From NCBI GenBank assembly GCA_918797485.1, contig CAKKNE010000003.1, positions 4,526,001 through 4,590,000 of the forward strand: a stretch of DNA of 64,000 bases, in the 5' to 3' direction. This document shows positions 73 to 42,287 of the stretch, one piece after another. Both the position numbers and the translations under genes were made by a program. The stretch is from Pelagomonas calceolata (Eukaryota). The notes below the pieces were generated by a model. That model did no database searches and had not been told where the DNA came from. It saw only the letters and a program-made list of their open reading frames with translations. Numbering within the stretch: position 1 is the stretch's first letter; each line of letters opens with the position of its first letter.

Positions 73-679
73 TAGAGAGAGAAACCTACTAGCCCTTCCT
101 ATCCTAGATATGTATCTCCCACTCTCTAATATTTGAGTCTATACATCGAGTGTCAAAAGCACTACGGTGTAACAACAGTTCACTATAAAACACTCTCGTA
201 GTCAGGTTGGCCCAGCCCTCGGCTGGTGAGCTAAGACCCTGCTACTATACCGTGACATAACGCTGCGACATACTCTTGCTAGGTTATGGGCCCACAGGGT
301 TCTGCCTATTGACGTAGAGTGTTTTACAGTGAATGCCTAGACAAGAAAAAACACCTAAAAAGAAATCCAAAAAGAAATCACCCCAAAAGAGCGAAGAAAG
401 TGAATACCCAGCAATGGATCAAGCTGAAATGAATCGGCTCATACAAAACGCGGTCGAACACGTACAAGCTGAGCTCCAGCAGAAACACGAAGAACGTATC
501 AAAGCGCTGGAAGCAAACCGCGAAGCGCAAATCAAAGTATACATCGACTCGGAGTGTCAAAAGCACTACGGTGTAACAACAGTTCACTATAAAACACTCT
601 CGTAGTCAGGTTGGCCCAGCCCTCGGCTGGTGAGCTAAGACCCTGCTACTCTACATAACGCTGCGACATACTCTTGCTA
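73..679 (+). mobile_element. Internally deleted Ty1/copia LTR retrotransposon (5' LTR 73-281, PBS 282-294, gag 5' remnant, partial 3' LTR ~538-679)
   Basis: 5-bp TSD ATAGG at 68-72 and 680-684; LTR TAGAGAGAG...CTCTTGCTA; PBS GGTTATGGGCCCA; ORF 333-605 starts as a gag-like basic/coiled-coil peptide and runs into the LTR. Confidence 0.9.
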
Positions 680-2239: not shown

Positions 2240-2674
2240 AATGGACGCTCGTGTCCAGGGGGAATAGAGAAACCCTGGTAGCGTAAGAGTATGTCGCAGC
2301 GTTATGTAGAGTAGCAGGGTCCCAGCACACCAGCCAAAGGCTGTGCCTACCTACGGTACCTCACGGTACCTACGGTACCTAACTACGAGAGTGTTTTATA
2401 GCAAATTGATACATCGTAGTGCAACGTAGAGAGAAACCTACTAGCCCTCCCTACCCTAGATATGTATCTCCCACTCTCTAAATTTGAGTCTATACATCGA
2501 GTGTCTATCGCACTACGGTGTAAACACAATTCAAGTTCAACTTGAAGTTTGCTATAAAACACTCTCCGAGGCTCGTACTACTAGTAGTAGTTCGGTTGGC
2601 CCAGCCTTTGGCTGGTGAGCTACGAGCCTGTAGGACCCTGCTACTTTACATAACGCTACGACATACTCTTGCTA
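2240..2674. mobile_element. Copia LTR mosaic: PPT plus LTR start (+), inverted LTR 3' part (~2285-2410, -), full LTR 2427-2674 (+)
   Basis: Direct sequence match to LTR 73-281 and to the PPT context at 9786-9808. Confidence 0.85.
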
Positions 2675-4705: not shown

Positions 4706-5084
4706 CACGTAATCATATTAGATTACGCTTATATTATAATTTTCACGACAGTTTCAATATATTTAAACCTTCGATAATTTTGCACGCACAAGATCTTATA
4801 ATCATTCCGCCAAGATTCCGATTAAACTTCAATAAGATCTTGGAGTTCATCAAGGGGATAGATTTGATGATGATGACACTTTGGCCATAAAATTCACCAC
4901 ATCCTGCATCAACTTCAAGAAACTGTTGGGTGGTAGAGCGTCCTCGAGGCCGTGGGCTTGGCCCCGCCGCCGATGGTTCGGGGGCGAGGTGTTGTTAACG
5001 GTCTTTTGGGAACTAACACCTTGGACTCATGCGGTAAAACCCGTAGCTAAGCGAAAACAGTCCCACGCCCTAGCGCGACCTCGC

Positions 5085-5323
5085 AGGACCACGCGGCCGC
5101 CCTGCTCAAGAATCGCCTTTACCGTCGCTGGGGCATCAAGACCGCGCGCGAGTACGCCCGGATCAAGATCGACGGCCTCCGGCTCGTCGGCGGCAACCCG
5201 GACTTCACCAACGCGCCCGGGCACGGCAACGACGACACACGCTTCTACGACCGGCAGCAAGCTTACGTACACGCTCGCGGGGGATAGCTCCCCCGACACC
5301 CCTCCCTAGGCGCCTGACTATAG
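5085..5323 (+). mobile_element. 3' fragment of a putative non-LTR retroelement
   Basis: Matches 24608-24835; encodes ORF end ...LYRRWGIKTAREYARIKIDGLRLVGG...HARGG*. Confidence 0.6.
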
Positions 5324-5470: not shown

Positions 5471-8101
5471 TTATTGCATTGAGCGCCGCGCCCGCTTTCG
5501 GCTTCGCACGAGGAGCGCGCACGCGAGGCCGGCTGCGATGCCCGCGACTCCGCGTGCTCGCGAGAAGACACTCGGTCGATCTCCGCCGCGGCGGATGTAG
5601 GCCATAACCTCGTCGCCGTGCCGCCTGGAGGCGAGGGCGCACAAGGCCGAATTTTTGCGCGATCGTTCGTACCGCCGCGAGCGCGTGATGTGCGCAAATT
5701 GTGCGCCGGCGTCTGCCTCGGCGAGGAAGACGGCGCTCGTCGCCGTCGCCTCCTGCTCGTCGGGGCCCCGCAGCGTCCAGGAGGCGTAGGGAAAGGCGAG
5801 CTGGTCGCGGCGGTGTCCCCAGCGGCGGTATTCGTCAAACCAGGCGCAGCCGAGCGCCGAACTCTCGTTCCGGTAGAGGTCGCGGAGGTGCCATTCGCCC
5901 TCAGCCAGCGGCGCGTCGCGCGGCAGGCCCGCCGCAGCGTACGCGCGGAGCTGGCTCAGCGCGGCATCCGAAGCAAGGCCCAGCAAGTGGACGCACCGCG
6001 CCTCTTCGTGCGGCGTCCCGCGAGCCGGGTGCCGCGGCGACGTCCACGCGGAACCGCGAGCGAGCAGCTCGTCGTGCAGCAGGCGCCACGTCCACTCGAG
6101 CGTGCTCGGGTGAAGCTTGGCGTCGAAGTAGAGCAGATACCGCGCGTTCGGGACGAAGCGGTGCGCGAGCATCTTCGGAATGCGGGTGTTCTGGGCGGCC
6201 GTCGCGAACGGTTGAAGTGCCTTCGGGACACGCACGACGCGCCACGGTCCGTGGTCAACGCTGTGGCACCGCCGGGCGCCGTGCATCGCGGCGATGCGGC
6301 GAGCCGCCGCGAAGTCGACGAGTGCGATCCAGCAGCTCGCCGCGCCCAGCCTATTCTCGAATTCTAGCAGCCGCGCGTGCTTGGGTTCCAGCGTTTTAAG
6401 GTGCTCCAGCGAGTCGATAGAACCAAAGAGCGCCGTGACGACGGCAAGCGTGCAGCGCCGCCCGCCCGCGGCCGCCGGCGCGTCGAGCGGCGGGTTGATC
6501 GACGAAAATGAGAGGCTTCCCGAGCACTCGCCGTCCCGCGCGCCGTCGCCTGGCGTGTTGCCCAGTTTCGCCCTCAGCGACGCCCTCAGCGACGATCTCA
6601 GCTCCCCCGTGTCCGTGATGTCCTCGACGACGTAGATCTCCCCGGTCGTTGGATTCCGGTGCACGCCGCGCTCGGCGACGACTTGAACCACGCGCGCGCA
6701 CGAGATCCGCCGGAAGCCGCGCGACACGACCGCCTGGATTTGCGTTGATTCAACAAACGCCGCGTGCCGCGCGTCCGCTTTGTCGAGGTCGAGGCAGACG
6801 CTCGGCATGAGGTGCGAGCAGTCCTCGCAATGTCCGAAGCTGTGAACCGCAAGGCTCGAGCCCGCGCGTGGTGGTGGTAGGCACGCGGCCAGCCCCGCGC
6901 CGAAGGCGGCGTGCGCCGCAACGACGTCGCGGCACAGCCTGGAAAGCGCCGCGTCCGTCCGACGCCGCGCGTCGTGGGGGAACGTGAGCGCGAAGATCAG
7001 GCCGAGCCGGTCGGCGACGTCGACGTCGAGCATGAGCGAATCGCGGCCCTCGGCGCGTCGCGCGAGCGCGACGAGCGCCGAGAAAGACGAAAACTGCGTG
7101 CCGACGAACACGGCGGCGCGGAGACCGAGCTCGAAGTCGACCTGGCCCTTGACGTCGTCGCCGCCGTCGGGCCCGGATGCCAGCGCCTCATCGACGTTCC
7201 CCAACGTCGCCTTGGCGTGCAGGCTAAAGCGCGGGCAGCTTCGATGCTTCCGAAGGTCGGCGTCGATTGCCCTGATGCGCGCGCGGTCCGCCTCGCCCAA
7301 GACGAAGACGTCGAGCGTCTTCAACGACGACCGACCGCGCGCGACACCAGCCAGCGCCGTGCACGCAGCGCGCGCGTACGCGCGCGCGTCGAGGCCATGC
7401 GCGCTCCGCACAAAGTCCTCGTCCGCGCGCCAGTGGATCGCGACGGCCGCGTGCTCCTTCGCGCGCCCGGTCGCCGCCGCGAGGCGCCGTGAGACCTCGT
7501 GCGCGGCGCGACGGATGCGCCGCGCCGATGAAAACGCCGCGTTGACGCTCGTCAGGAGGTCGAGGCTCCGGCGCGTGTCAACCACGAGCTTGGTGCAGCA
7601 GTCCTCCTCGCCGCCCAGCGACCAGACGCCGCCCCGAAGGTCGTAGCGCCGCGCGACGTCGCCGCCGGGCCCGAGCTGCGACGCGGTCGTCGGCCAGAGC
7701 GCGCCGGCGAGCTCCGGCGCGCGCCCCTCGCTGCGCGTGTCGACGACGCAGACGCCCGCCCTTCGGAGGCCCTCTACCACCCTCTCACGATCGTAGACGG
7801 CGTCGAACGGGACCGTGCCTTCGTAGTCCTGGTAGCAGCCTGCGCGGTAGCCGCACCGCCGCCGCGTTCGGAGAAAGGAAGGCAGCTCGACAGCCGCGCC
7901 GAGCAGCGCCGCGATAACCGCGTCCTGGACGATGCGCATCCGCTGGTTGTTCAGGCCCTTGCGCACCGCCGGAATTCGGACGACGCCGCTCACGCCTGCA
8001 CCGCAGGTTGTTGCGGCGTGGTAGGCCGGCGCAACGGCCGGGCAGGCGGGCGACGGCGCCGCTGCGGCAGCCGCCGCCAGCGTAAAGAACACCGGCCCCA
8101 T
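5471..8101 (-). CDS. O-fucosyltransferase-like plus DUF616-like glycosyltransferase fusion, C-terminal TM
   Basis: 876-aa ORF with signal peptide; GLNNQRM, AIHWRADEDF, FVGTQFSSFS (O-FucT); VVTALFGSID, YLLYFDAK, RRDQLAFPY (DUF616). Confidence 0.8.
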   Translation of the reverse strand: MGPVFFTLAAAAAAAPSPACPAVAPAYHAATTCGAGVSGVVRIPAVRKGLNNQRMRIVQDAVIAALLGAAVELPSFLRTRRRCGYRAGCYQDYEGTVPFDAVYDRERVVEGLRRAGVCVVDTRSEGRAPELAGALWPTTASQLGPGGDVARRYDLRGGVWSLGGEEDCCTKLVVDTRRSLDLLTSVNAAFSSARRIRRAAHEVSRRLAAATGRAKEHAAVAIHWRADEDFVRSAHGLDARAYARAACTALAGVARGRSSLKTLDVFVLGEADRARIRAIDADLRKHRSCPRFSLHAKATLGNVDEALASGPDGGDDVKGQVDFELGLRAAVFVGTQFSSFSALVALARRAEGRDSLMLDVDVADRLGLIFALTFPHDARRRTDAALSRLCRDVVAAHAAFGAGLAACLPPPRAGSSLAVHSFGHCEDCSHLMPSVCLDLDKADARHAAFVESTQIQAVVSRGFRRISCARVVQVVAERGVHRNPTTGEIYVVEDITDTGELRSSLRASLRAKLGNTPGDGARDGECSGSLSFSSINPPLDAPAAAGGRRCTLAVVTALFGSIDSLEHLKTLEPKHARLLEFENRLGAASCWIALVDFAAARRIAAMHGARRCHSVDHGPWRVVRVPKALQPFATAAQNTRIPKMLAHRFVPNARYLLYFDAKLHPSTLEWTWRLLHDELLARGSAWTSPRHPARGTPHEEARCVHLLGLASDAALSQLRAYAAAGLPRDAPLAEGEWHLRDLYRNESSALGCAWFDEYRRWGHRRDQLAFPYASWTLRGPDEQEATATSAVFLAEADAGAQFAHITRSRRYERSRKNSALCALASRRHGDEVMAYIRRGGDRPSVFSRARGVAGIAAGLACALLVRSRKRARRSMQ

Positions 8102-9339
8102 CTGGGCAATAATTAAATAGGCCGTGGGCAGCCCCTGCCTCTAGACTAGAATACTAGAATGCCTACGCGAGTCCCCTGCGCGAGCGCTGGACGTCGGATC
8201 CGCTTTGTTGCGTTCCTCGTGTACTCTGATGCATCTGTGCCGCTTGGCGCAGCCCCGGAGGCGCTGCGTGCGTTGTGAGAGGCCTAAGTGCACCTAGGCT
8301 CATCGGAGCCAGTTTTCGCCGGCGGCGCGCGTTTCCGCCGCCCGCGACCCTCCCCCGGCGTCCACCGAGTCGCGGCGGCCGGGCCACAGGCCGGCGGTGC
8401 TCCACGGCTCGGTTTCTTCGACTTGCGCGGCAACGAATTGGTTGCATATACCCGCTGCGCGCAGGCCTCCTCGCGGCGCGTTGAACCTCGCCGGCGCCGG
8501 CGGCCAGTCCGAGCCCGAAACAAAGACAAGAGACATTCTTGCATCTTGATGGCGGGTCGAGCCCGGAACACGGACGGCACCCATCCTCGGGCATCGAGTG
8601 GTGCGCGTTCGGTGGTATCCGGCCCGTTTCCTGAAGTTTTGCCGCCGGCATGGCGGCGAGCCTCATTTGCCTGCGACCGGACCGACCCTACGGAGCTCGC
8701 GGAACTACTCGTCGGTCTCGACCTAGGAGGCGTCGGGGACGGCGGCATGCCGCCCCTCGCAACCTTCGTCGGGCCGGCCGAGCTTTCGTAGGCCCTCCGA
8801 ATCGCCGGGGCATCCATTGAACCCATTAGTTCCGTTCCGACGAGTTATTGTCAAGGGTCGTCTGGGCTGGGTCGGAGCCGAGCTCCCCACCAAAAAATAT
8901 GTGTCGAGGGCATGCCCTCAATCATTGTCAAAGGCCTGGTGTGCGAGGGCATCTCTCTCAGCACTTGATTTCCGGCTCGTCGTAAAAGAGGAGCCAGCGG
9001 CCAGTTCCACATCCTGACGGGGGTCGTCCCAAAAAGAGGGGGGGGGCGTGCGAGTCCATGCGACTCAGCCCTTGCGTCCTAGTCCAGCCGGACGGGTGGG
9101 CCCGGGGGGAGCGGGAGGGGTACGGGGAACCCTGCGACGTAACTAGCCTGAGCCTAGTAGTAAGTAGTAAAGTGAACTTGGTGCACCACAGAGCCACTTT
9201 TAGCCTGTCCCGCCATAGCTTTTTGTACGATTACCGGCGGCTGCTCGTCTAGATACCTGACCACGTTTGGTTAGATAGGGTTCGTTACGGATCCGAGTCC
9301 CCGGCCCGGGGCCGCGGCGGCCGCTCGTACATTAAGCAA

Positions 9340-9422
9340 ACCATCTGTTTTGGTTTTCTACCGCTTCTAGGCATTCACTGTAAAAACACTCTTCCGAGTC
9401 GTCAGTAGGCGCCGGCGGAACG
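9340..9422 (-). mobile_element. Copia leader/gag-start fragment
   Basis: Reverse complement of ~298-360 (AGAGTGTTTTACAGTGAATGCCTAGA). Confidence 0.65.
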
Positions 9423-9511
9423 TTCAAATTATCTATAGTATGATAGTACTAGTACCTACGGTACTACCATGGTACCTACGGTACCTACGGTACCTACGGT
9501 ACCGTGACTAC

Positions 9512-10009
9512 TAGAGAGAGAAACCTACTAGCCCTTCCTACCCTAGATATGTATCTCCCACTCTCTAATATTTGAGTCTATACATCGAGTGTCAAAAGCA
9601 CTACGGACGGTCCATTTGAAGGAGTTTACTGACTTTCCGAAAAAGGACGAGAAGGATCCAACAACAGTATTTACGGATATTCATTTCGAGAAGAAGTCTG
9701 TTGCTTATGAAGCCTATCACTTGTCACATGGACTTTGCCTGTGAATAGACTGAGTTGATACATCCTCTAGTGGAAGCGCATCTAGTGGACGCTCGCGTCC
9801 AGGGGGAGTAGAGAGAGAAACCTACTAGCCCTTCCTACCCTAGATATGTATCTCCCACTCTCTAATATTTGAGTCTATACATCGAGTGTCAAAAGCACTA
9901 CGGTGTAACAACAGTTCACTATAAAACACTCTTGCAGTCAGGCCTATCAGCTCTAAGCTGGTTAGCTAGGACCCTGCTACTTACATAACGCTGCGACATA
10001 CTCTTGCTA
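9512..10009 (+). mobile_element. Internally deleted copia element (partial 5' LTR 9512-9606, internal 3' end, PPT 9801-9808, 3' LTR 9809-10009)
   Basis: 5-bp TSD ACTAC at 9507-9511 and 10010-10014; AGGGGGAG directly precedes the 201-bp LTR. Confidence 0.9.
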
Positions 10010-10061
10010 ACTACCGTAGGTACCTACGGTACCGTAGGTACCGTACTATAGTACTAGTAGT

Positions 10062-10274
10062 AGTAGCCTGAGGGTCCTAGCTCACTGGCACCAGCCAGAG
10101 GCTGCCAGTGGGCCAAGCCAACTACGAGAGTGTTTTATTATAAACTGGTTTACACTGTAGCGTCGGTAGACACCCAGCGTATAGACTCAAACTTAGAGAG
10201 TGGGAGATACATATCTAGCCTATACTAGTAATCTAGGGTACCTACGGTAGGAAGGGCTAGAGGTTTCTCTCTCA
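10062..10274 (-). mobile_element. Diverged partial copia LTR
   Basis: Reverse complement of the LTR, carrying several 6-bp insertions. Confidence 0.85.
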
Positions 10275-10366
10275 ACCTTGACGCCAGCCGGCAGTCCGTC
10301 CGCTGTAACTCTACTCGAGCGTCAATTTCTGCCGGGCCGACACGTCGCATCCCACACGGATTCAAC

Positions 10367-13282
10367 ATGGGCAGCGTGCTCTTCTGGTGCATCGCGGTCA
10401 ATGCAGCTGCGGCAGGCTGCGGTCGACGCCTCCTCCGTTCCCGGGTGATTGGGCTGATGGCAACGAAAGACGACGCGAAGGTGATGGCAGAGTGGCTGGA
10501 GCATAACATGGGTTCGCTGGCTGGGCTCGCCGTGTTTGACTCATCGCGTGGGACGGAGACGCAGTCGGTGATTGAAGCGTACGTGACGCGCTGCGGCGCC
10601 AACATCACGTACCACCGCGAGGACGAGCTCGCGGCGCCACTGGTCTCGCATTCGGACCAGGCGGTGCGGTACTGGCCGCTCCGCGCGCTCCGCGAGCGCT
10701 GGGGCGTCGGGCGCTGGGTGATGGTGGCGCACGCGGACGAATTCTGGTACCACGAGCCGGAGTTGGTGGCACGCGCTGCGGACACGCGCATGGAAGCGGG
10801 TTTGATGCCCCGCTGTCAGGTCGTCTCGTGGTACGCGCCGCAGGTCGTGCCCCACCCTTCGGAGTATGAGCGCTACATAAGGTCCAGGCGCCAACCGGTG
10901 CAGACGCTCTTTCAGCATTTCCACACGGACGCGCCGGGCGAACTCGTGAAGTTGGAGGCGCGACTGTTCCTCGACGACGGTCGCGACTATGTTGCGAACT
11001 CGACTGCACGACAGGGAACTGTACCCGCCGGCCTTACACCCTGTCGCCTGACGGGCCCGGCTTACCTGCACTACAAGGTAGTGGACCCGGACCCGGCAGT
11101 ATATGACTCACAGGGCCGGCACAGGTCGCATTGGACTGGACACGGCGCGCCCGGCGTCGGCTTCGGGCATGACGTGTCGTCGATCCGAGATTTTTTCGTC
11201 GAACACTTCCGTCGCTTCACCCGCGTGTACCGGTTTGAAGGCTGCCTCTCGGCGCTGGTCCCCGAATTTCCAGGGCTCGCCGACTTTGAGCCGCTACGAG
11301 TCGACCGCGTTTGGCCACTCGCGGTGGGAGATGGCACCGCCTGCCCAACAACACGGCTCCTCGTCGAGGTCGACGCCGCGGCGGCTGCCTACGACCAGTG
11401 GCGCGCGTCGCACTTCGACCGGCGGTTCGCCGGCGTGCGTCGCTGTCGCGTGGGCGGTCTAGAGTACCGCATCGCGGGCGGCCATAAGCGCCTCGGCAAC
11501 TGCGTCTCGACGGTTGACCACCACGCCGTCGGCTTCGACGCCGCGCCCGTGGTGCCGTTCGTGTGCCCGAGGGGCAAGCTCCGGATCCTCGGCGAGCCCG
11601 GGTCCCACAGCGAGAAGCACGTCTGCGCGCTCGACGCGCTCATCGCGCAGCCGCGGCCCTGCGTATTTATCTCGGTCGGCAGTTCGGGGAACTTCGTCTT
11701 CGAGGCGGAGATTGCGCGCCTGACACCGGCCCGGTGCGCGATCGAGACGTTCGACTGCACCGGCACTTGGTCCGTGCCCAAGGCGCTTGTCGGGCGGGTT
11801 CGCCTTCACCAGGTCTGCCTCGACACCGTCGACCACTGGGGTCCGTCGCCGGCGACGTCGGAGCACCTCCGGCGGATGATGACGCCGCCCGCCGTCGAAT
11901 TCCTAAGTTGGCCGTCGCTCCTTCGGCGCGCCGGATTGCCACCCGGCGTCCCACCTACCTTTCTGAAGATGGACTGCGAGGGCTGCGAGGCGACGTTCTT
12001 CCGCGCGCTCGCGCGCGCACCGCCCGCGCTCCGGCAGACGCTGCCACCTCAGATCGCCGTCGAAGTCCACTACCCCTTCAGAGAGGACAAATGGGCGGCA
12101 TTCTTTCGTCGTGTCTCGCCGTTTGCACGCTGGCCGCTCGAAGAGTTTGTCGCCGAGCTCCGCGCCGAACTCGGATACTTCATCGCGGACCGAAACGACT
12201 GCGCCCCACAATGCTGCTCCGAACTGCTTCTCGCAAGGACTCTCGCCCCCCCGGCACCGTCGACGGCGATCATGTCCGCCGCGTTAGCGCGCGACGACAC
12301 GAGATGCCCGCCGGGCCCGCGAGGCGGCGTCGCCGCGCTCCAGGCGCTCGAGCTCGGAACAGGGGAGGCGGATGTGCTGCTCTCAATCGTATTGCCCACG
12401 TACAACGCGCAACCGGGCGACGTACGCCGGCACGTCGTGGCCGTCGCGCGCGCGTCGCGCTCTGCCGTGGAGCTCGTCGTCGTCGACGACGGCTCAGCGC
12501 CGGCGCTTACGCCCGCGGAGGTCGGGCTGGATCGCACTGCATCGAAGATTCGCTACAGGTTCGCCCGTATTACGGTCGACATTCCCTGGAACGTCGTCGG
12601 CGCGAAGAATCTCGGTGCAGCCCTCGCGCGTGGCCGGTGGCTCCTGTTCCTCGACGCCGACATCGTCGCGCCCGCCGGCGCCATCGACGCTATGGTGGGT
12701 CGACTCGAGGCTGGGGGTGATCTCGCGGCTGGCGACGCCTGGGTGTTCGCGCGGCGGCAGGCCGGGGGCCAAATCATGGCCCGAGGACCGCACCCGGCTG
12801 TGGTACTCCTCCGGCGCTATGACTTTTGGGCACGCGTCGGAGGAATGGCCGAGGACTTTGCCGGGTCATGGGGCACGGAAGACACCCTCTTGAAAATGCA
12901 AGTGAAACTCTTGACACCTCGCCCCACCTTCGAGCCCGGCATCGTTCTTCCCGTCGCGCCCAAAGTCATTCTTGACCAGCACCGCTTGCGCTCGAGACCA
13001 AATTCCACTGGAAAACCTGCGCGCAATGGCACGCGCAACCGGTTGCTTCTCATCGATCTCACGAGAGAACGTGTCGAAAATAGCGCCACCTATGACCCGC
13101 TTGTGCAGTGTGTCCTCCGATTCCCGTACGAGCTCTTCGAAGAAGGTGGCGCGCCGGTAGTACTGGTCAACGCCAAGGTGCGCCGCGTGTCCACGTCAGC
13201 GACGACAGTGTATTGGACCGTCGTCACTACTGTGCTTTTGTTCATCGTCATGAGGTGCTGGAACGCACGCAATATCCACTGA
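10367..13282 (+). CDS. Tri-domain protein: GT2-like + SAM methyltransferase (Methyltransf_22/FkbM-like) + GT2/GT7-like, C-terminal TM
   Basis: 971-aa ORF; VMVAHADEFW; EKHVC..FISVGSSGNFVFE..TFDCT..FLKMDCEGCE; VVVDDGS, LFLDAD, GGMAEDFAGSWGTED. Confidence 0.8.
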   Translation: MGSVLFWCIAVNAAAAGCGRRLLRSRVIGLMATKDDAKVMAEWLEHNMGSLAGLAVFDSSRGTETQSVIEAYVTRCGANITYHREDELAAPLVSHSDQAVRYWPLRALRERWGVGRWVMVAHADEFWYHEPELVARAADTRMEAGLMPRCQVVSWYAPQVVPHPSEYERYIRSRRQPVQTLFQHFHTDAPGELVKLEARLFLDDGRDYVANSTARQGTVPAGLTPCRLTGPAYLHYKVVDPDPAVYDSQGRHRSHWTGHGAPGVGFGHDVSSIRDFFVEHFRRFTRVYRFEGCLSALVPEFPGLADFEPLRVDRVWPLAVGDGTACPTTRLLVEVDAAAAAYDQWRASHFDRRFAGVRRCRVGGLEYRIAGGHKRLGNCVSTVDHHAVGFDAAPVVPFVCPRGKLRILGEPGSHSEKHVCALDALIAQPRPCVFISVGSSGNFVFEAEIARLTPARCAIETFDCTGTWSVPKALVGRVRLHQVCLDTVDHWGPSPATSEHLRRMMTPPAVEFLSWPSLLRRAGLPPGVPPTFLKMDCEGCEATFFRALARAPPALRQTLPPQIAVEVHYPFREDKWAAFFRRVSPFARWPLEEFVAELRAELGYFIADRNDCAPQCCSELLLARTLAPPAPSTAIMSAALARDDTRCPPGPRGGVAALQALELGTGEADVLLSIVLPTYNAQPGDVRRHVVAVARASRSAVELVVVDDGSAPALTPAEVGLDRTASKIRYRFARITVDIPWNVVGAKNLGAALARGRWLLFLDADIVAPAGAIDAMVGRLEAGGDLAAGDAWVFARRQAGGQIMARGPHPAVVLLRRYDFWARVGGMAEDFAGSWGTEDTLLKMQVKLLTPRPTFEPGIVLPVAPKVILDQHRLRSRPNSTGKPARNGTRNRLLLIDLTRERVENSATYDPLVQCVLRFPYELFEEGGAPVVLVNAKVRRVSTSATTVYWTVVTTVLLFIVMRCWNARNIH

Positions 13283-13744
13283 GAGGGGACTGATGGATCT
13301 TGTCCCTGTCGGCGAGCCTCGTGGCCCTCAGCGCCACGTCTCTCAATTATGATACCGGAATGCGAACCTTGGCTGCCCACATTCCTGCAAAGTGTTATGG
13401 GGCACATGAGACAGCTGAAAGCTAGGCCATCCTAGAAACAAAATCAACATCCAACTTTGTGTATTATCCGAGTCGGCTCCGGTGAACATACCATCGGAAA
13501 CTTACCACTGGCAAGGAAATCAAGAAATCGAGCCGCCGCGCGAAGGCAGCAAACCCTGCGCGAGTGCGCCCACGACCCGTCGCGGGCGAAACAATTCTGG
13601 AACGTGGTGCTAGAAAACCGATGTTACCAACCCCGGGGGCCCTGGCTTCAGGCAGGTTCATCCCGGGGCCCGAACCTGTATGCATGTGTAGTGAACAAGG
13701 ATCTTTCCAACAATTTAGAGGAGAAGTCCGCAACATTATAAGGT

Positions 13745-13996
13745 CTATGGTTCTTTTTGTGTTTTTTGTTTCCTTTTCTACTGCTTCTAGACATTCACTG
13801 TAACTGAAAACTGCAATGGAAATACACGTCTAGTAGGATCCCAAGGTTCAACTGAGACGTATCCAAGCACAACCCGTACTAGGCGGAGCCTCGTGGGCCC
13901 ATAACCGTGACCTAGCAAGAGTATGTCGCAGCGTTATGTAAAGTAGTAGGGTCCTAGCTCACCAGCCAGAGGCTGGGCCAACTTGAAGCCAACTAC
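13745..13996 (-). mobile_element. Copia 5' LTR end, PBS and gag start
   Basis: TGGGCCCATAACC (interrupted by a 6-bp insertion) next to TAGCAAGAGTATG; TCTAGACATTCACTGTAA matches the gag start. Confidence 0.85.
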
Positions 13997-14287
13997 TAGC
14001 CTAAGTAGGCGCCGTAAAAACACCGGGGTGAACCTAAACTTGAAGTAAGTTCACTTCAGGCGCGTCTCTAGTGCGCGTGGTCCGGGGGCCCTGGGGTTGG
14101 CGCCCGTTGTGGCAACGGCCTCTTTTCCCACTTATAAATCTCCCAAATTTTATCTTAGCTTCACTATCCTAGTCTCATTTATCTTAGTTAAATACCCGGA
14201 TAGAATAGGCCTAGTGAATACGGTACCAGCTTGTACCGGTACTGCTAGCGGGGATCATCTTGGCTAGATCTTGGCTGCCCGCGCAAG

Positions 14288-15432
14288 ATGAGGCACGCGT
14301 GCTCCTTCGCGCTTTTCGCCACCTTCGGCCGCCTGCCCGCCGCAGCAGCGCCTGGCAAAGCCACGAAAAATCTCTGCGCGGCCGCGGTCGTCCTGCCGTT
14401 CAACGCAACGCGACCCTTTGACGCCGCCGGCCGCGCGAGCCTGGCCCGGAACCCGACCTGCACCGCGCGCTTCGGCGAGATCCGCACCGTCCGCGGGCGC
14501 CAGCGCGAGCGGCTGACCGTCGGCTACAGCTACTACTGCGACGTGCACCACTTGGAGCACAATGTGCGTCTCTGGAACACATTCCCTGCCGTTATTCTCG
14601 ACCACGTCCACTTCTTGATCGTCGATGACGGGTCTCCGGACGAAGCGCGAGCGGCGCCCGTCGTCGCTCGCAACGTGGAAGCAGCGAGCGGGTCTCCGGC
14701 GTCCCGCTCAGATTGGCGCTTTGGGCGAGCCCCATCCCCAACGCAGGCGTCACGGTCGTCGAGATCGAACAGGACCTCGCGTGGAACATTGGGGGCGCTC
14801 GGAATTTGCTCTTCGCGGTGGCACCGACCGATGTGATCTTTGTCATGGATATGGATACTTTCGCCCCATGGGAGCTCCTCGAATGGGCGATGGGGCAACT
14901 CGAGCCGGTGCGCGAGAGCTGCTTGGTCATCAACGCATTTCGGCGACTTGCGCCCCGATGCCCACTCCCGTGCCCGCATCCGGCCGTCATGCTCTTAACG
15001 AAGCTGAGCTACTGGCATATCGCCGGCTGCGATGAAGATCTCGTTGGCCGTTATGGGGGCACCGACCCCCTGTTCAGGCACAAGACCTCGGTCATGAGAT
15101 CGTGCACCACGACTCATGCCAAAAACTTGGGCGATATGCCGTTTCTCCAGGTCATCAAGCGTAATATAGGACCACGCAAGACCAAAGCGAATGGAAACAA
15201 GAAGATTGGGCTCGTCGCAGCAAAAATTAACGGCACGCGCCCGTGGGCGACGAGTGTTCTCCGCTTCTCGTGGTACGTAGCGTTCTCTACCGTACCGGCT
15301 TCGGCTTCGGTCCCGGCTCCGACTCCAGTTCTGGTCCCGGCTCCGACCAAAGCGACGTCCGGTACCCCTTTGCTTCGCAGAGGCGCGGTCTCATGGTGGA
15401 GACGCTGGATAACCAGGCGACTGAGGTCATAG
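14288..15432 (+). CDS. GT2/GT7-like glycosyltransferase with one short intron (probably 14688-14746)
   Basis: FLIVDDGS in ORF 14288; WNIGGARNL, VMDMD, PHPAVMLL, AGCDEDLVGRYGGTD in ORF 14713; resembles the last domain of 10367-13282; donor site uncertain. Confidence 0.7.
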
Positions 15433-15590: not shown

Positions 15591-15809
15591 TGAAAACTCC
15601 CCTAGATATATATCTTCAACGCCGTAGCCCCCTATCGCCGGATCTATGGCTACATTACTCTCGCCTATCAGCACGCTATACCAGCCGGCACGTGCCCGAG
15701 CCGGTATTTCCCTATATCCCGTATCTTCTTGCTTATCCAAGTGGATCAAGCCCGGCGCTAAGTAGCCGCCGTAAAAACACCGGGGTGAACCTAAAGTAAG
15801 TTCACTTTA
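15591..15809 (+). mobile_element. Second interspersed repeat, possibly a TG..CA LTR
   Basis: 3' part recurs at 14001-14058, 26797-26903 (-) and 30716-30731; ends in GTGAAC-N9-GTTCAC then TTCA or TTTA. Confidence 0.5.
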
Positions 15810-15879
15810 CTGGGGGGAACAGCGGGAAACGACCCTACAAAGCCCAAGTGAGGCTAGCCCCATAAGTAACCTACATGTC

Positions 15880-24428: not shown

Positions 24429-24855
24429 TTATTAACTAAGCTAACACCCCTCTAGGCGCGCGCCCCCGCAACCCGAATTGACTATAGCTATTCCTTTATT
24501 AACTAAGCTTACGTACACGCTCGCGGGGGATAGCTCCCCCGTCACCCCTCTAGGCGCGCGCCCCCGCAACCCGAATTGACTATAGCTATTCCTTATTAAC
24601 TAAGGCTGCCTTTACCGTCGCTGGGGCATCAAGACGGCGCGCGAGTACGCCCGGATCAAGATCGACGGCCTCCGGCTCGTCGGCGGCAACCCGGACTTCA
24701 CCAACGCGCCCGGGCACGGCGACGACGACGCACGCTTCTACGACCGGCAGCAAGCTTACGTACACGCTCGCGGGGGATAGCTCCCCCGTCACCCCTCTAG
24801 GCGCGCGCCCCCGCAACCCGAATTGACTATAGCTATTTCTCTCTTATTAACTAAG
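24429..24855 (+). mobile_element. Three tandem 5'-truncated copies of a putative non-LTR retroelement
   Basis: Common 3' end GAATTGACTATAGCTATT; TTATTAACTAAG at 24429, 24496, 24593 and 24844. Confidence 0.75.
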
Positions 24856-25476
24856 GATAATTAAAAAAGTTATTTTATGGTGCGGGTAATTTTAGTAAAA
24901 CGGGCTGAATCGGGAAAATACCGGCGTATGGGGCTGCTTTTGGCCCCAGGCACATTGCTGGGGGGTGCACGGGGCGGGGGACACCTGAGTGGTAATGGGC
25001 CGTGGCGGTGGGTCGGCCCGAGGGGGGGTGCGCCGCGCGCGCTGTTTCTAGTTTTAGGAGGAGCCTCTGAGTGCCATATTTTTTACTATTATACCTGTCA
25101 CGGTTATATACTAGTAATATCGAATTCAAGTTATAGTAGAACGCGGACGGCCCAGGTCACAAGCTCTTCGTGGCTGATGTACCCGCTGGCCGGGGTGATT
25201 CCGTCAAATTTGCACCCCGCGCTGCATGCAGCCCACGGACATCATAAGGAACAGTTGACCCAGCGGGACCTTCCCCCCTTTCCCCCGTCTTCCCTTCAAG
25301 TTTCATTTGCGGGTCCGGTTTTTTCGGAGTTTGCCAGATTATGCACTTCTGTGCCAGTATTGAACATACCGCAGTACTAATTTCTACGTCGATAGCGTAC
25401 TTTTTTTTTACATGTCGAGCAAGCGTACTTTTTTTAGTGGTACTCATTCGGAGTCATTCGGGGGAGTGACCTGGTA

Positions 25477-27105: not shown

Positions 27106-27131
27106 CCTGTCTCTATAATCGCGCTGGTAAG

Positions 27132-27319
27132 GTAGCAGGGTCCTGGCTCACCAGCCGAGGGCTGGGCCAACCTAGCTGCCAACCTAACTACGAGAGTGTT
27201 TTATAGCAAATTGTTGTTACACCGTAGTGTCAGAGACACTCGCTGTACTGTATAGACTCAAACTTAGAGAGTGGGAGATACATATCTAAGGTAGGAGGGC
27301 TAGTAGGTTTCTCTCTCTA
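27132..27319 (-). mobile_element. Copia LTR lacking its 3' end
   Basis: Reverse complement of the LTR, including the TAGAGAGAGAAACC start. Confidence 0.85.
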
Positions 27320-27353
27320 GTAGTGCCAAAAACATGAGCTCACTTAGACGACG

Positions 27354-28676
27354 ATGCGGGGCAACCGGCCCTTCGACCAAAGGCTGCGTTTTGCTTCTGG
27401 CGTAGTGCTGCTGGTCATTTCAAGTGCGCTGTTCGCGAGTCCGGCGTTTCTCAAGGCATTTGCCAAGTTACTGGTCACTCGCGCACCAAAACCTGGCGCT
27501 GTGAGGTCGGCGGCGCCTTTCGAGGTATCAACGTTGTTCCGGTGCAACGAGGCGGAGGTGGCACAGCATGTGGCGCGGGTCGAGTTGAGCACGTACCAGT
27601 GGGAGCGCATGAGGCGATCGAATTTGCCAGCGCCATGGTCAGATGTTCCGCAGCTAAGGTCGTTTCGCGAGTGCTTGTCGCAAACGGGCCACATGCCTTT
27701 TGGCACTGTGATTTCGCAGGACCAGCGGCTCGTGACATGGACCCCTGGGAGGAACGTAAGCACACCTCACTCCACGATGCACGGCGGCGGCGTTGAGTGC
27801 GTGTCTAACAGTATTGGACCAATTGCCGAAGAACTACTATCGAGCCCTACGATTGATGATTTGGAATGGGTCTGGGGCGACACTGCAATGGCAACCATGT
27901 CCGTCGACGACGTACGCCTCGCCCTCAAACATGCTGAGGTCGCGCTAATCGGCGACTCCCTCACGCGGCAGCAGTTTTATTCGCTATGCTGCCTCCTGGA
28001 CATGTTTGACGCTGAACCAAAGCGAATACACTACCTTAGTGTCGATATGATATCGCAGATGCAGCATTATCACGCCGAGGTCATCAACTCAAGCGACATC
28101 GTCCTCTTCGGCATCGGCCACCATATGGACAGGTCCAAGGACTTCCACGCGACGTACGAGGAGATCCTTGACACTGTTTTCAACTACGCTGCGGCTCGGC
28201 GGAGGGAAGGCGCTGCCATGTGGGTCCGGACACGTTGCCCGAGGCATTATCTCGCCGGCGATCCCCAACCGCCAGACATGAGGGCGTACCGGCTCCCAGG
28301 CGACACAAATCAGCCCCCGTGCCACAATTTTACGGGCCCCGCGACGAACCTTACCTACGCTGTCTTGAACAGATTCGATGCCACCGGCGTCCCCTTTATG
28401 AACTGCCAACTCCACAAGCGTCACCAGGCCATGTTGGTGAAAGGTCGCAAAGATGTTCACTTGCTCGACACAGAGGCGCTCTCGTTCTTCCGTCCCGACC
28501 AGCACAACAGAAACGGGTCGGTGTACTCCCGAGGCTCACAGGGGAAACTTCCATGTGATCTATCCCACTACTGCTACGCCGGATCTGCTCCCAGTGTCCC
28601 TGACACGTGGAACATCCTCTGGCTCAACAGAATAGTTGCTGACTGGAAAAAACAAGATCGGAGCGTCGCACGGTAG
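27354..28676 (+). CDS. TBL/PC-esterase family O-acetyltransferase-like protein
   Basis: N-terminal TM; ALIGDSLTRQ; FGIGHH; DLSHYC..DTWN. Confidence 0.8.
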   Translation: MRGNRPFDQRLRFASGVVLLVISSALFASPAFLKAFAKLLVTRAPKPGAVRSAAPFEVSTLFRCNEAEVAQHVARVELSTYQWERMRRSNLPAPWSDVPQLRSFRECLSQTGHMPFGTVISQDQRLVTWTPGRNVSTPHSTMHGGGVECVSNSIGPIAEELLSSPTIDDLEWVWGDTAMATMSVDDVRLALKHAEVALIGDSLTRQQFYSLCCLLDMFDAEPKRIHYLSVDMISQMQHYHAEVINSSDIVLFGIGHHMDRSKDFHATYEEILDTVFNYAAARRREGAAMWVRTRCPRHYLAGDPQPPDMRAYRLPGDTNQPPCHNFTGPATNLTYAVLNRFDATGVPFMNCQLHKRHQAMLVKGRKDVHLLDTEALSFFRPDQHNRNGSVYSRGSQGKLPCDLSHYCYAGSAPSVPDTWNILWLNRIVADWKKQDRSVAR

Positions 28677-28766
28677 CCTGTGCCCTCGGCGCTTGGGATT
28701 GAGCCGCTGGTCCAGCACCGCACACATGCAGTCGCGTCCACGTGAAATAAATGACCTGATTGACTT

Positions 28767-28953
28767 TACGAACGATCGCGCAAAAATTCGGCCCTCTGCG
28801 ACCTCGCCTCCAGGCGGCACGGCGACGAGGTTACGGCCTACATCCGCCACGGCGGAGACCGACCGAGTGCCTTCTCGCGAGCACGCGGAGTCGCGGGCAT
28901 CGCCGCAGGCCTGCGTGCGCGCTCCTCGTGCGACGCCGAAAGTTGGCGCGGCG
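28767..28953 (+). pseudogene. Duplicated 3' fragment of the gene at 5471-8101
   Basis: Inverted match to ~5483-5671 with substitutions and a small indel. Confidence 0.85.
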
Positions 28954-29642
28954 TCCCATGCCACAGTGTGGGTAACATACGGGGCACACTTGCCCTGCAC
29001 GTCCATTTGTATGCGCCTATAATAGCCTAAATTTCAAAATGCATCCATATTATGTACATATTTATTTATTTATCATGATTTATTTATTTAAGGGGCCGGA
29101 ACCCGATTAAATCGGGGGCTGTAGTGCCTCCCCATTAATAGCCTAAAGGGCCAAACTAGCTGCGAACGAGCCTAAGGGGATGCCTCACCTTCTGGCCGAG
29201 TGTGGGGCCCTGAAAAAGCGAGGGGGCGGAATGGCCACCACGCGAACGTCGCGCCAGTCACGGTGGCGTTTCGTTTTGGGCACCTCACCCCATCTCGAGG
29301 GGGGCACCTCCGTGGCAAGCTAGTGTCGCCGTGTGCTTAGGATGCCCCTGGGACCCAGCAAACGCCATTTGGCCCTTTAGGCTATTAATTGAAAATCTCA
29401 CCAATTTGGGTGCCGGCCCCGTATTTATTTATTTATTTTATTTATTTAGGGCCCGCCGGAACTCCCCGAGTCGGCCCAGAGGTCATCGGCTGCTGACTCA
29501 GGCTTATCCCCGCCTTCGCGTTCGAGCATCTTAATCTCGACAAGAACACGGACACGTTCTTTGCGGCTTCAGGAATCCGCGACCCACGCGGGACTTGGCC
29601 GGGGCGTTATTATTTCAATGATATTTATCTATACTCGTATTA

Positions 29643-30641: not shown

Positions 30642-30710
30642 TAGCAAGAGTATGTCGCAGCGTTCTGTAAAGTAGCAGGGTCCTAGCTCACCAGCCAGAG
30701 GCTGGGCCTA
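30642..30710 (-). mobile_element. Copia LTR 3' end fragment
   Basis: TAGCAAGAGTATGTCGCAGCG...CAGCCAGAGGCTGGGCC. Confidence 0.85.
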
Positions 30711-30979
30711 ACCCATAAAGTAAGTTCACTTTATTTATTCCAACTTGAACTTGACTCGGAGCCTGAGGGGGGGGGGGGGGGTGGTGTAAAAACAGCCAAA
30801 TTTTAGGCCTTCCTTAATCATTTGTTTGTTTGTTTGTTTGTTTGTTTGTTTATCATGATTTATTTATGGCTTTATTTATTTAAATCTGCATGGGGTCACG
30901 GTATTCCGCGAATCTTCATTCTCAGCGAATCCCGAATCTCGAATCCCAAAAATAAGAGAGTATGTAAGATCGTGACCGC

Positions 30980-36097: not shown

Positions 36098-36444
36098 TGG
36101 GCCCATAACCTAGCAAGAGTATGTCGCAGCGTTGCGTAAATTAGCAACGGCGCTATTAAGCTTCCTCGTAGGGCTGGGCCAACCTAACTACGAGAGTGTT
36201 TTATAGCAAATTGTTGTTATATGTATTGGTCGCTCCTATTGAATCAGCACCGGGCCTCACAGGACTTGGATTTATCAGATCAAAAAGTGACACCAGTCTC
36301 TACACTTACATTGGTCCCGATGGAAAATGGTGCGCGATTGCAGTATTCGTAGATGACCTCCTAATCACTGGGACCGGGACCAGCACCACCAAGATAGACG
36401 AACTACGTACATAGGGTAGGAAGGGCTAGTAGGTTTCTCTCTCT
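36098..36444. mobile_element. Minus-strand copia LTR with PBS, interrupted by a plus-strand copia reverse-transcriptase fragment (~36255-36410)
   Basis: PBS 36098-36110; LGFIRSKSDTSLY...AVFVDDLLITG is a copia RT motif; LTR start at 36411-36444. Confidence 0.85.
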
Positions 36445-37020
36445 ACTACGGTACCTACGGTACCTACGGTACCTACCTACGGTACGGTACCTGCGGTACC
36501 TAGCTCTACGGTACCATGGTGCCTATGGCAGCTGATGGCGTGCAATGGCTGGCCCTACGTCGCACGTCTTAATTTGAATTCTTGAACGCACTTGCAGTCC
36601 AGTTTTGGGTACACCTCCTCAAACAACTGCACAATCCGTGGCAATCCGTGGCTTGTCCGGCCGGCGCGCCATGACGCCCGACGCCGACGAGCCAGCGCCC
36701 GCTGCTCCTCCGTCCGCGTCGCGCGCCGCGTCCGCTCGAAATCTTACAAGTACCGTGCTCTTTACGCGCCGCGGCGCGGGCCTCCAAAAGGGAGTCGCCC
36801 AGCAGTGCGCCTCGCGGCCCAGGATTGGCGCGGAAGAAGGAGGTCTTCGTCGCATCTAAACCGTTGCCGCGCGCCTTAGCCACGCGCCGCAGCGACCTGT
36901 CTCAGCGGCACACCCGCGCAGGCGCTTCGGTGCGCGGCCGCGCCTCGAGTCATCATTTTGTTCGCGCGGGCCGGACGATGAGAGAATCGCGACCTCACGG
37001 TCACGGCCGAATTTGATAGC

Positions 37021-40451: not shown

Positions 40452-40649
40452 CCTGTGGTGCGCTTATCACCCTCGAGGTCTCCAAATGCTGTCGACGTAG
40501 TAAACCCGCGAGCTCTGGAGGCTCGAGGCTCAATCGCCAGTGAATTATCTGAATCGCCAGTGAATTATCTGAGCTCCCCACGAGCCTAGCGGGCTGAAAG
40601 ACTCTAGCGAACATCACCCTGCAGCTGAGCCCAGGCACCCAGCCCAGGC

Positions 40650-42287
40650 ATGGCGGCCCAGGCGACGGCCGTCGTGGGCGTCGCCCTGCAGCTCGACGTA
40701 CCGAGCCTGAACGAGCCGCTGCTCGCGTTCCTCGCGACGCGGGCGGGCATCACCGCGCTCTGCGCCGCCATCGTCTCGCGGCAGCAGCGCGCCTCCGCGG
40801 CGGCGCTCGCGCGGAGCGCGCGGGCCGCGCGCCTCTTGGTCGGAGACGCGGACGACGCGGCCGGCGCGGCCGGCGTCGCCAAGTGCCTCGACGACGCGCT
40901 CCATCAACTTGCGGCGGCGCGGCTCCTCGACGCGCTCGACGCCGCGACGCCACGGGCGTTCGCGCGCCACGCGGCGTACGCGCTCGTGCGGCTCTTTCGC
41001 GGAAAGCCCGACGCCGTATACGAAGCGGCGCTCGACGGCGACGACGGAAGCGACGGCGACGAGAGCGACGGCGGCGCGCCGCGCGCGCCGCCGCGGCTCG
41101 CGCGCCTCCTCGACGCCGCCCCCGAGGTCTTCGTGGAGCTCGCGGGGGGCGGCGTCCCGGCGGAGGCGCGGCCCGAGGACGCCCCCCCCCACCCGCCGGC
41201 TGCCCCTTCGCCCGAGGCGCGGTGGAAATTCTGCATCGCGCTCGCGCGCTGGCGGTGTCTCCGCAGCCTCGCGGAGCGGTGCGTCTGCGGCGGAGACGGC
41301 GCCGGCCGCGCCGCGGCGGACGCGTGCCGCCTCTTCGCCGAGTGCGTGGAAGCCGCGGCGCGCGACGTCAAGTGCGGCGAGGTGCTGCTCCGGGGCCTGC
41401 CCGGCGTCGAGGCGCCGCTCCTGGCGCTGCTCGAGGCTCCGGACGCGCCGCCCCGCGCGCGCGTCGCGGCCGCGGCCGCGCTCGCCGCGGCCTGCCGCGC
41501 GGGCGCCGCGCCGGACCGCGGCGCGCCGGGACTCGCGCTCGAGGCGCCGAAGACGACGGGCGGGATTGACGCGGCGCGGAGCGCGTTCCTCGCGAGCGCG
41601 TCGCCGGTGATCGCGCGGCGCGCGGCGCGCGCATTGATCGAGTGCGACTCGCCGCTGCTGCGCGTGCACCTCGCGACCACGCTCGCGGCGTGCGTCGCGG
41701 CGGCTCCGACGGCGGCGTTGGGCGAGATACCCAGAGGGGCCTGGCGCGACGTCGCCGACCGCTTCGTCGCGGGCCGCGACGGCGACGTCTTCCTACGGAT
41801 CGCATTCAAGCTGCTCGCGGCCGCGCTCGTCGCGGGCCACGCGCCGACGGACCGGACGCTGGTCGTGGACTGCGACGTCGGCGCGCGCTGCGCGGCGTCC
41901 CCGGACGATCCGTTCCGCCTCGCGCTCTGCGACGTGCTGCGGCTGCGCTGCGCGAGCCTGCCGCGCGACGCGCCGCTGCGGCGGCTGCTCGCGGCGTCCG
42001 CGCCGTGGCGCGCGGCGCAGAAGGCCATCAGGGCCGCGGCGCGCGCCGAGAACGCGCGGCAGCCGCGCGGGGCGCCGCAGCTGGCGGCGCCCCGCGTCGA
42101 CGGCCTCTTCGGCCTCCTCGACCCCGGCGCTCCCGCGCCGGTCGGCGGGTTCGATGGAGACGACGTCGACACGTTACTCGACGAGCGCGTCGACCTCGGC
42201 TCGCCGTACGCCGCGGCGCGCGGCTTCGGCGGCGTCGAGCCGTTCGTGCCCCCGGCGAGGGCGCGGCGACGCTCGACTCTGAGATAG
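40650..42287 (+). CDS. Hypothetical helical-repeat protein
   Basis: 545-aa ORF with host-like codon use; no firm motif. Confidence 0.5.
   Translation: MAAQATAVVGVALQLDVPSLNEPLLAFLATRAGITALCAAIVSRQQRASAAALARSARAARLLVGDADDAAGAAGVAKCLDDALHQLAAARLLDALDAATPRAFARHAAYALVRLFRGKPDAVYEAALDGDDGSDGDESDGGAPRAPPRLARLLDAAPEVFVELAGGGVPAEARPEDAPPHPPAAPSPEARWKFCIALARWRCLRSLAERCVCGGDGAGRAAADACRLFAECVEAAARDVKCGEVLLRGLPGVEAPLLALLEAPDAPPRARVAAAAALAAACRAGAAPDRGAPGLALEAPKTTGGIDAARSAFLASASPVIARRAARALIECDSPLLRVHLATTLAACVAAAPTAALGEIPRGAWRDVADRFVAGRDGDVFLRIAFKLLAAALVAGHAPTDRTLVVDCDVGARCAASPDDPFRLALCDVLRLRCASLPRDAPLRRLLAASAPWRAAQKAIRAAARAENARQPRGAPQLAAPRVDGLFGLLDPGAPAPVGGFDGDDVDTLLDERVDLGSPYAAARGFGGVEPFVPPARARRRSTLR

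Follow-up and report, generated by a model that had tools for sequence, protein, structure and literature searches.

We examined a 64,000-bp stretch of the genome of the marine picoalga Pelagomonas calceolata (GenBank assembly GCA_918797485.1, contig CAKKNE010000003.1, positions 4,526,001 to 4,590,000; hereafter the window), in which an intronless gene for a glycan-modifying protein of 971 amino acids (aa) appears to be enclosed, in antisense, within a long terminal repeat (LTR) retrotransposon of the Copia type. This gene is probably a resident, flanked on either side by the eroded 5′ end of a separate Copia insertion that was itself probably targeted to a promoter. Copies of the family lie at a characteristic position ahead of start codons, face away from the gene, are associated with a sequence motif and are eroded. 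A preliminary description of the window had proposed that the gene was retro-captured or moved as a cassette by LTR-mediated recombination, and had named independent insertion followed by erosion as the alternative. Once targeting of promoters in a fixed orientation is added, this alternative fits best, and among the readings weighed below it is the one we consider probable. Where genes run head to tail and each has a divergent LTR at its promoter, the LTR of the second gene turns its primer-site end towards the 3′ end of the first, so that the upstream gene appears enclosed in antisense as a matter of geometry, and an orientation rule of wide reach likely explains the enclosed look of the glycan gene.

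The rule was read from the window and from 35 metagenome loci that contain the junction between an LTR and the primer-binding motif of the family (L-numbered below; about 21 distinct sites). A divergent open reading frame (ORF) with an ATG start begins within 300 bp of 16 of the 19 intact LTR 5′ edges that have no polypurine tract (14 edges from metagenome loci and five from the window), at distances of 31 to 287 bp with a median of about 100 bp. The insertions thus cluster just upstream of RNA polymerase II (Pol II) genes, as promoter targeting predicts. The same test applied to intergenic positions gave chance rates of 0.25 to 0.29 (950/3776 and 1994/6844; p about 1e-7 and 1e-6), and ends on the primer-site side passed it in 5 of 20 cases (Fisher p 3e-4), a count that is biased low by the blurred ends of remnants. 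Two of the 16 positives (L018 and L023) rest on short open-ended ORFs, and the insertions of L008 and window 27319 belong to the same gene. Three edges missed. At L026, the start of a WD40 gene broken by introns is, as read by eye, about 104 bp off; window 9515 is nested in another element; and window 36442 is the third. Left out of the 19 were LTRs behind a polypurine tract (L003, the second LTR of L034, and window 9809), edges with little upstream sequence (window 73 and L025), duplicates (L019, L007 and L030), and pieces whose 5′ edge departs from the search motif (the L010 group, L009/L024, the second LTR of L018, the smaller pieces of L013, and window 13996, 30713, 2422 and 2264).

LTRs of this family are also found at core genes outside the glycan island. 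The genes that diverge from them include those for a kinesin (L014), a sulfatase (L022) and a JmjC protein, as well as the intron-bearing WD40 gene of L026. On the primer-site side, adenylate kinase (L017), VLRF1/ankyrin (L032) and TPR (L012) genes lie in antisense just as the glycan genes do, although by a hand count gene orientation on this side is mixed, roughly half each way. A gene between LTRs without a polypurine tract recurs, with other genes, at L013 and L001, and LTRs that point at each other across a divergent gene pair are seen at window 2156/2851 and 8101/10367 and at L009 and L018. The occurrence of the same layout at housekeeping genes speaks against retro-capture. The earlier statement that genes are antisense to the LTR in all four layouts described proved selective: two genes, 2851 and 30491, follow LTR pieces in the sense orientation (2427-2674 on the plus strand and 30713-30642 on the minus strand), and gene 10367, the 971-aa gene itself, is in sense to the element at 9512-10009. 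At L018, positions 1-103 match window 40647-40749, the start of a gene outside the island (gene 40650); the sequence upstream is altogether different there, and a divergent LTR stands about 100 bp off. This layout may be real or a chimeric contig; as a filled site of gene 40650 it was rejected, since homology ends 3 bp before the ATG and leaves no clean pair.

Of the 19 edges, 16 have a TACCG(C/T)AG / GGTAC tract no more than 70 bp outside them, compared to 339 of 4436 intergenic 70-mers (7.6%), the pattern having been written after the flanks were seen. The tract occurs upstream of 11 of 29 window genes and downstream of 2 of 29 (p 0.01), and the former include genes without an LTR. The preliminary description placed the start of gene 27354 at 35 bp from an LTR 5′ edge, and this LTR does end at 27319; L008 shows its empty site, where the motif is intact, and has another LTR copy 62 bp beyond it. 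At 9512-10009, an element copy is nested in a GTAC/TACCG tract and its target-site duplication (TSD), ACTAC, falls within that tract. That the tract is there before the element inserts is indicated most directly by this TSD and the empty site. In the mechanism that we propose, the Copia element would insert about 100 bp ahead of a start codon, at the tract and with the 5′ LTR edge towards the gene. Each insertion flanking the 971-aa gene would have been targeted to the promoter of its own gene, pointing away from that gene. Deletion has since reduced most copies to the LTR, primer site and leader. A tract-binding factor may tether the integrase, in the way that Sap1 does for Tf1. One-way promoter docking of a Copia element, in a sample chosen for intact 5′ junctions, is the noteworthy result.

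Survival after insertion, rather than targeting, could also create the orientation. Elements would then insert without regard to direction, and selection would keep the copies whose U3 end lies at the promoter, possibly through outward promoter activity of the LTR. Consistent with this, RNA of the 971-aa gene starts in bin 10144-10354, the bin that holds the left LTR 5′ edge, and Ty1 is described in a review as altering gene expression more often from an upstream position, in the orientation opposite to the gene (PMC7175516). The two independent LTR copies at the promoter of gene 27354, one in the window and one in L008, are both divergent, and insertion points lie in a sequence tract, which indicates targeting of position but not necessarily of direction. 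We think it quite unlikely that selection alone fixed the orientation.

The sequences flanking the 971-aa gene are consistent with two 5′ ends. The right piece, described earlier as LTR end, primer-binding site and gag start (13996-13745), does contain the first two and a leader; in place of a gag start, 13740-13670 is an RNase H tail. The left LTR (10276-10061) is indeed on the minus strand, with its terminal ~35 bp missing. It was not borne out as a 3′ LTR: no polypurine tract was found on the minus strand of the window, and the LTR has a leader of its own behind it, and so is the 5′ end of a second element. This LTR and the leader at 9421-9352 both share marks with L010, an unrelated locus, and so form one 5′-type unit. 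The two flanking LTR-leader units are sister copies in direct repeat. Both of their outer ends, where a TSD outside the pair would lie, are eroded. RNA over 10144-13730 is of the sense strand only and has no splice joint, which bears out the intronless reading (stranded polyA RNA, two runs of one sample, with 6% and 12% of reads covered); antisense depth at the gene is 0-2.2 compared to 2.8-90 in sense, indicating that no element-sense transcript passed through the gene in that sample. The 3′ untranslated region (UTR) extends to the RNase H fragment.

Several points weigh against promoter-targeted insertion as the full account, in addition to the blurred primer-side ends and the after-the-fact motif mentioned above. 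The sample required an intact LTR/primer junction and so under-represents old, eroded copies, and one 5′-truncated piece (30713) faces the 3′ end of a gene. An LTR variant is private to the two flanking units (2 of 33 LTR segments), as is a leader variant (2 of 22 leaders), in sets that include duplicate loci and, among the 33, one segment that is not an LTR. These shared variants may reflect one old subfamily, and to judge from RNA reads the LTR variant may exist in a third copy, but they are also the trace expected of duplication or recombination. By substitution-only distances, a weak test over a short overlap, the two units are not nearest neighbors. Finally, the minus-strand order of LTR, primer site, leader, RNase H piece, gene and LTR is that of one element, and at L035/L020 a methyltransferase gene and a GT34 gene lie between a primer site and a pol-end fragment, without a tract.

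That one-element order, together with the same-strand sister LTRs, is what retro-transduction would produce, in which a transcript from the right LTR runs antisense through the gene to the left LTR, is reverse-transcribed, inserts as one non-autonomous element and is then eroded. A tandem arrangement of polypurine tract, LTR and primer site exists at L003 and could explain the leader behind the left LTR. At L003 these parts stand in a row and are followed by a low-GC ORF unlike those of the host; it is possibly a tandem copy or a one-LTR circle, and the contig is possibly chimeric. We nevertheless consider retro-transduction very improbable. Enclosure by one element with a tract and a 3′ LTR was not found: the left unit is of the 5′ type and has no tract. 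No antisense LTR-to-LTR transcript across the gene, of the kind whose detection had been suggested as a check, was seen in the two runs. The gene is present in one copy per genome, and among the best ~8000 candidates scored neither a parent gene nor further copies were found, only alleles and, as the nearest separate relative, a protein with 61% identity over one module. Template switching on mRNA would yield a sense insert and a parent gene, as inferred from the model in PMC5131818, and neither is seen. The lack of introns is no sign of capture either, in that antisense capture would not strip introns and their scarcity is normal in Pelagomonas (0.45 per gene; PMC9481584).

Movement at the DNA level, a second part of the original proposal, fares better. 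In this scheme, the LTR-leader direct repeats would recombine, so that the gene and its promoter are excised as a circle or converted into another LTR site. This scheme does not conflict with promoter targeting and would account for the place of the 971-aa gene between sister units. The sister units in direct repeat are consistent with it. So is gene 27354, which has different neighbors on both sides in L008 and the window, with one break at the LTR insertion point, and together with the private variants this makes DNA-level shuffling between LTRs possible. The C-terminal ~120 aa of the 971-aa protein are replaced in 3 of 11 other alleles, and RNA reads join 13973 back to 10109 (40 and 72 reads) in the geometry of a circle junction. 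However, another intact LTR of the subfamily would give this joint just as well, and other flanks are seen at loose ends. The 3′ break of L008, at 29103, is not at an LTR and has only 89 bp of different flank, and metagenome contigs can be chimeric at repeats, as L026, L030 and L011, which share one flank each, illustrate. No deletion or duplication allele with unique flanks on both sides was found in six DNA-type runs, a weak negative given that contigs break at repeats. Cassette movement of the 971-aa gene is possible but in our judgment unlikely. A joint of 9495 to 13913 in four DNA-type runs was considered as a deletion allele and rejected, one side being only 24 nt of repeat and the gene being covered there. 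Behind gene 27354, and traveling along with it in L008, sits an inverted ~91-94% copy (28767-28961) of 5476-5671, the 3′ end of gene 5471-8101. The insert in the right leader is 100% identical to a sequence at the unrelated locus L017 (13509-13577, reverse-complemented). In reads, each end of it also occurs with other flanking sequence, and it is possibly a small mobile insert.

Table 1. Copia remnants and associated genes in the window (positions are those of the window)
Feature	Position	Strand	Remarks
Self-contained deleted Copia copy: LTR, primer site, leader, gag start, LTR half	73..679	+	TSD ATAGG
Pile of LTR pieces between divergent genes	2243..2674	.	Polypurine tract and ~11 bp of LTR (+); piece 2422-2285 (-); LTR 2427-2674 (+)
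Leader remnant of left LTR	9352..9421	-	Beyond GTAC tract and nested 9512-10009 copy
Younger internally deleted Copia copy	9512..10009	+	5′ LTR part, pol end, polypurine tract, 3′ LTR; TSD ACTAC
Left Copia LTR, 3′ end lost	10061..10276	-	5′ edge ~90 bp ahead of ATG; points away from gene
971-aa intronless gene	10367..13282	+	Domain search and stranded RNA
RNase H tail fragment of pol, not gag	13670..13740	-	19/24 aa match; within or at end of 3′ UTR of the gene
Right leader with foreign insert	13755..13893	-	69-bp insert at ~13812-13880
Primer-binding motif	13894..13906	-	6 nt from LTR end
Copia LTR 3′ half	13913..13996	-	Lost 5′ side towards start of gene 14288
GT2-like neighbor gene, 361 aa, two ORFs joined	14288..15432	+	RNA joint
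LTR 35 bp ahead of gene 27354	27126..27319	-	Inside TACCGCAG motif, uninterrupted in L008
Segment holding gene 27354-28676	27320..29103	+	98.7% match in L008, where both flanks differ
LTR 3′ half in sense ahead of gene 30491	30642..30713	-	Exception to divergent rule
Interrupted LTR and primer site past 3′ end of gene 32533	36098..36445	-	Inserted in GTAC tract

The first 36 kb of the GC-rich window are an array of mostly single-ORF glycan-modifying genes with domains of the glycosyl-, methyl- and acyl-transferase type, separated by spacers of lower GC that are filled with repeats. Glycan-gene islands are considered important for recognition by viruses and grazers. The stretch is represented in marine metagenomes and cultures from 11 studies; two wild metagenomes link the 971-aa gene to the left LTR, and one of these also links it to the right leader. 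The protein belongs to a cluster of 210 members, of which the others listed derive from ENA assemblies, and has a weak GT2-like N-terminal module (E 0.002) and Methyltransf_22 (3.6e-7) and Glycos_transf_2 (6.7e-15) domains. Depth of the gene and of its neighbors in three culture-sized DNA runs was 14.5 compared to 14-16, 183 compared to 192, and 572-600 compared to 599, indicating a single-copy gene. In two metagenomes, depth falls from ~14-19 at gene 5471 to ~9-13 at the 971-aa gene and ~6-7 at downstream genes, which hints at accessory genes; this was not used, depth being unsafe for ranking. The gene looks like a fusion of modules, because its N-terminal module occurs alone in P0084, a separate 359-aa protein (61% identity). 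The wild alleles P0001, P0004 and P0009 are near-identical to about residue 848 and diverge only after it (window ~12900-13282), a pattern that suggests ectopic recombination at the 3′ end of the gene. In the neighboring gene 14288, RNA reads define one 59-nt GC-AG intron (14688-14746), and its protein has 29% identity to the GT2 module of the 971-aa protein. Searches of viral contigs gave no match to the 971-aa gene.

The Copia family is defined by an LTR of ~205 bp with TA...TA ends, unlike the usual TG...CA, a primer-binding motif, which we take to be a half-tRNA(iMet) primer site, a leader, a gag start and a polypurine tract. L034, a deleted copy of 1072 bp, retains the RNase H tail of pol. 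Searches of Pfam and PDB alone found nothing, but the internal peptide of L034 has seven longer homologues, three of which contain RVT_2 (PF07727), and this assigns the element to Copia. As in Ty1/Copia elements, direct terminal repeats are bounded by a 5-bp TSD, the reverse transcriptase and RNase H are of the Copia type, a primer site lies behind the 5′ LTR and a polypurine tract lies ahead of the 3′ LTR. Perfect TSDs, already reported for the copies at 73-679 and 9512-10009, are present at both, the only two of nine candidate pairs to have one. No full-length copy was found in the window or the 35 loci, where most copies end inside the leader or gag start; within the window, a tblastn match to the gag start occurs at 414-551 only. 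LTR patterns had no match in viral or prokaryote contigs. Targeting of tRNA genes is not indicated, since none were found in the 12 of 35 loci scanned. Many LTR copies in the window and the loci have short, often palindromic insertions at recurring positions, which is a distinctive mode of LTR decay.

Two further genes had been described as lying within or beside LTRs. For gene 1119-2156, the LTR at 679 is the closing end of an element with its own TSD, and only ~11 bp of LTR follow the polypurine tract at 2243. For gene 32533, an LTR with a primer site does lie beyond the 3′ end, whereas the other side has no LTR 5′ edge. A 37-bp direct repeat (932-968 and 2202-2238) brackets gene 1119-2156 and could mark the boundary of a non-LTR cassette; it also occurs at ~42630, at ~53240 and in L017, and resembles the end of another dispersed repeat. 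Other high-copy repeats fill spacers at 4794-5313, 8746-9239, 14001-14221, 15620-15874 and 24445-24856, and bin 8746-9239 was ~200-fold above the depth of single-copy DNA in one run.

Insertion of LTR elements at promoters has been studied in depth in fission yeast. Tf1 and Tf2 of Schizosaccharomyces pombe are promoter-targeted, with Sap1 sites for Tf1 (PMC7175516, PMC5371812). The family described here is similar: its host genome is also compact, and it too inserts up to a few hundred bp ahead of Pol II genes, in association with a DNA site at the promoter. Tf1 is a Ty3/gypsy element that, according to the review, inserts in either orientation (PMC7175516), whereas the present element is a Copia, nearly always divergent and at a median of about 100 bp; likewise, tethering by a promoter-bound protein is a feature described for Tf1, and here a motif association is what is seen. 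In the wtf genes of fission yeasts, spread by non-allelic recombination or circles between direct repeats has been proposed (PMC9562144, PMC7175516). Like these, the island genes are host genes with LTR flanks and not themselves mobile elements, and the 971-aa gene is flanked by direct LTR repeats. In the sources cited, the wtf genes are one multi-copy driver family; the glycan genes are unrelated and single-copy, with movement indicated for at most one gene on one contig. The layout also resembles LTR-mediated retrocopies (Tan et al. 2016, PMC5131818; PMC5470649), in which a gene between LTR-element pieces replaces the internal region. As far as those papers describe retrocopies, the 971-aa gene differs in being antisense and single-copy, in having its own upstream region and 3′ UTR, and in lacking a parent, further copies, a 3′-type LTR and an element-sense spanning transcript. 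Finally, outlier regions of the Mamiellales, also marine picoeukaryotes, are TE-rich (rich in transposable elements) stretches of lower GC, with a Copia next to a hexosyltransferase gene (10.1101/2025.04.21.649811). The accessible text of that paper mentions neither a rule of orientation or distance nor a target motif. In the open-access literature searched, we found no one-way Copia rule at ~100 bp with a visible target motif in a marine picoalga.

Promoter docking provides a testable model for the survival of a transposon in a compact algal genome. It also calls for caution, in that the layout of a gene inside LTRs can be pure geometry. We speculate, tentatively and as something rather doubtful, that fixed-direction docking leaves recombination handles outside promoters, and that entire glycan genes, promoter included, are excised and re-inserted between such handles, shuffling the accessory surface-glycan repertoire of wild populations. 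If the LTR handles do recombine, they would provide a concrete mechanism for variation in glycan-gene islands.

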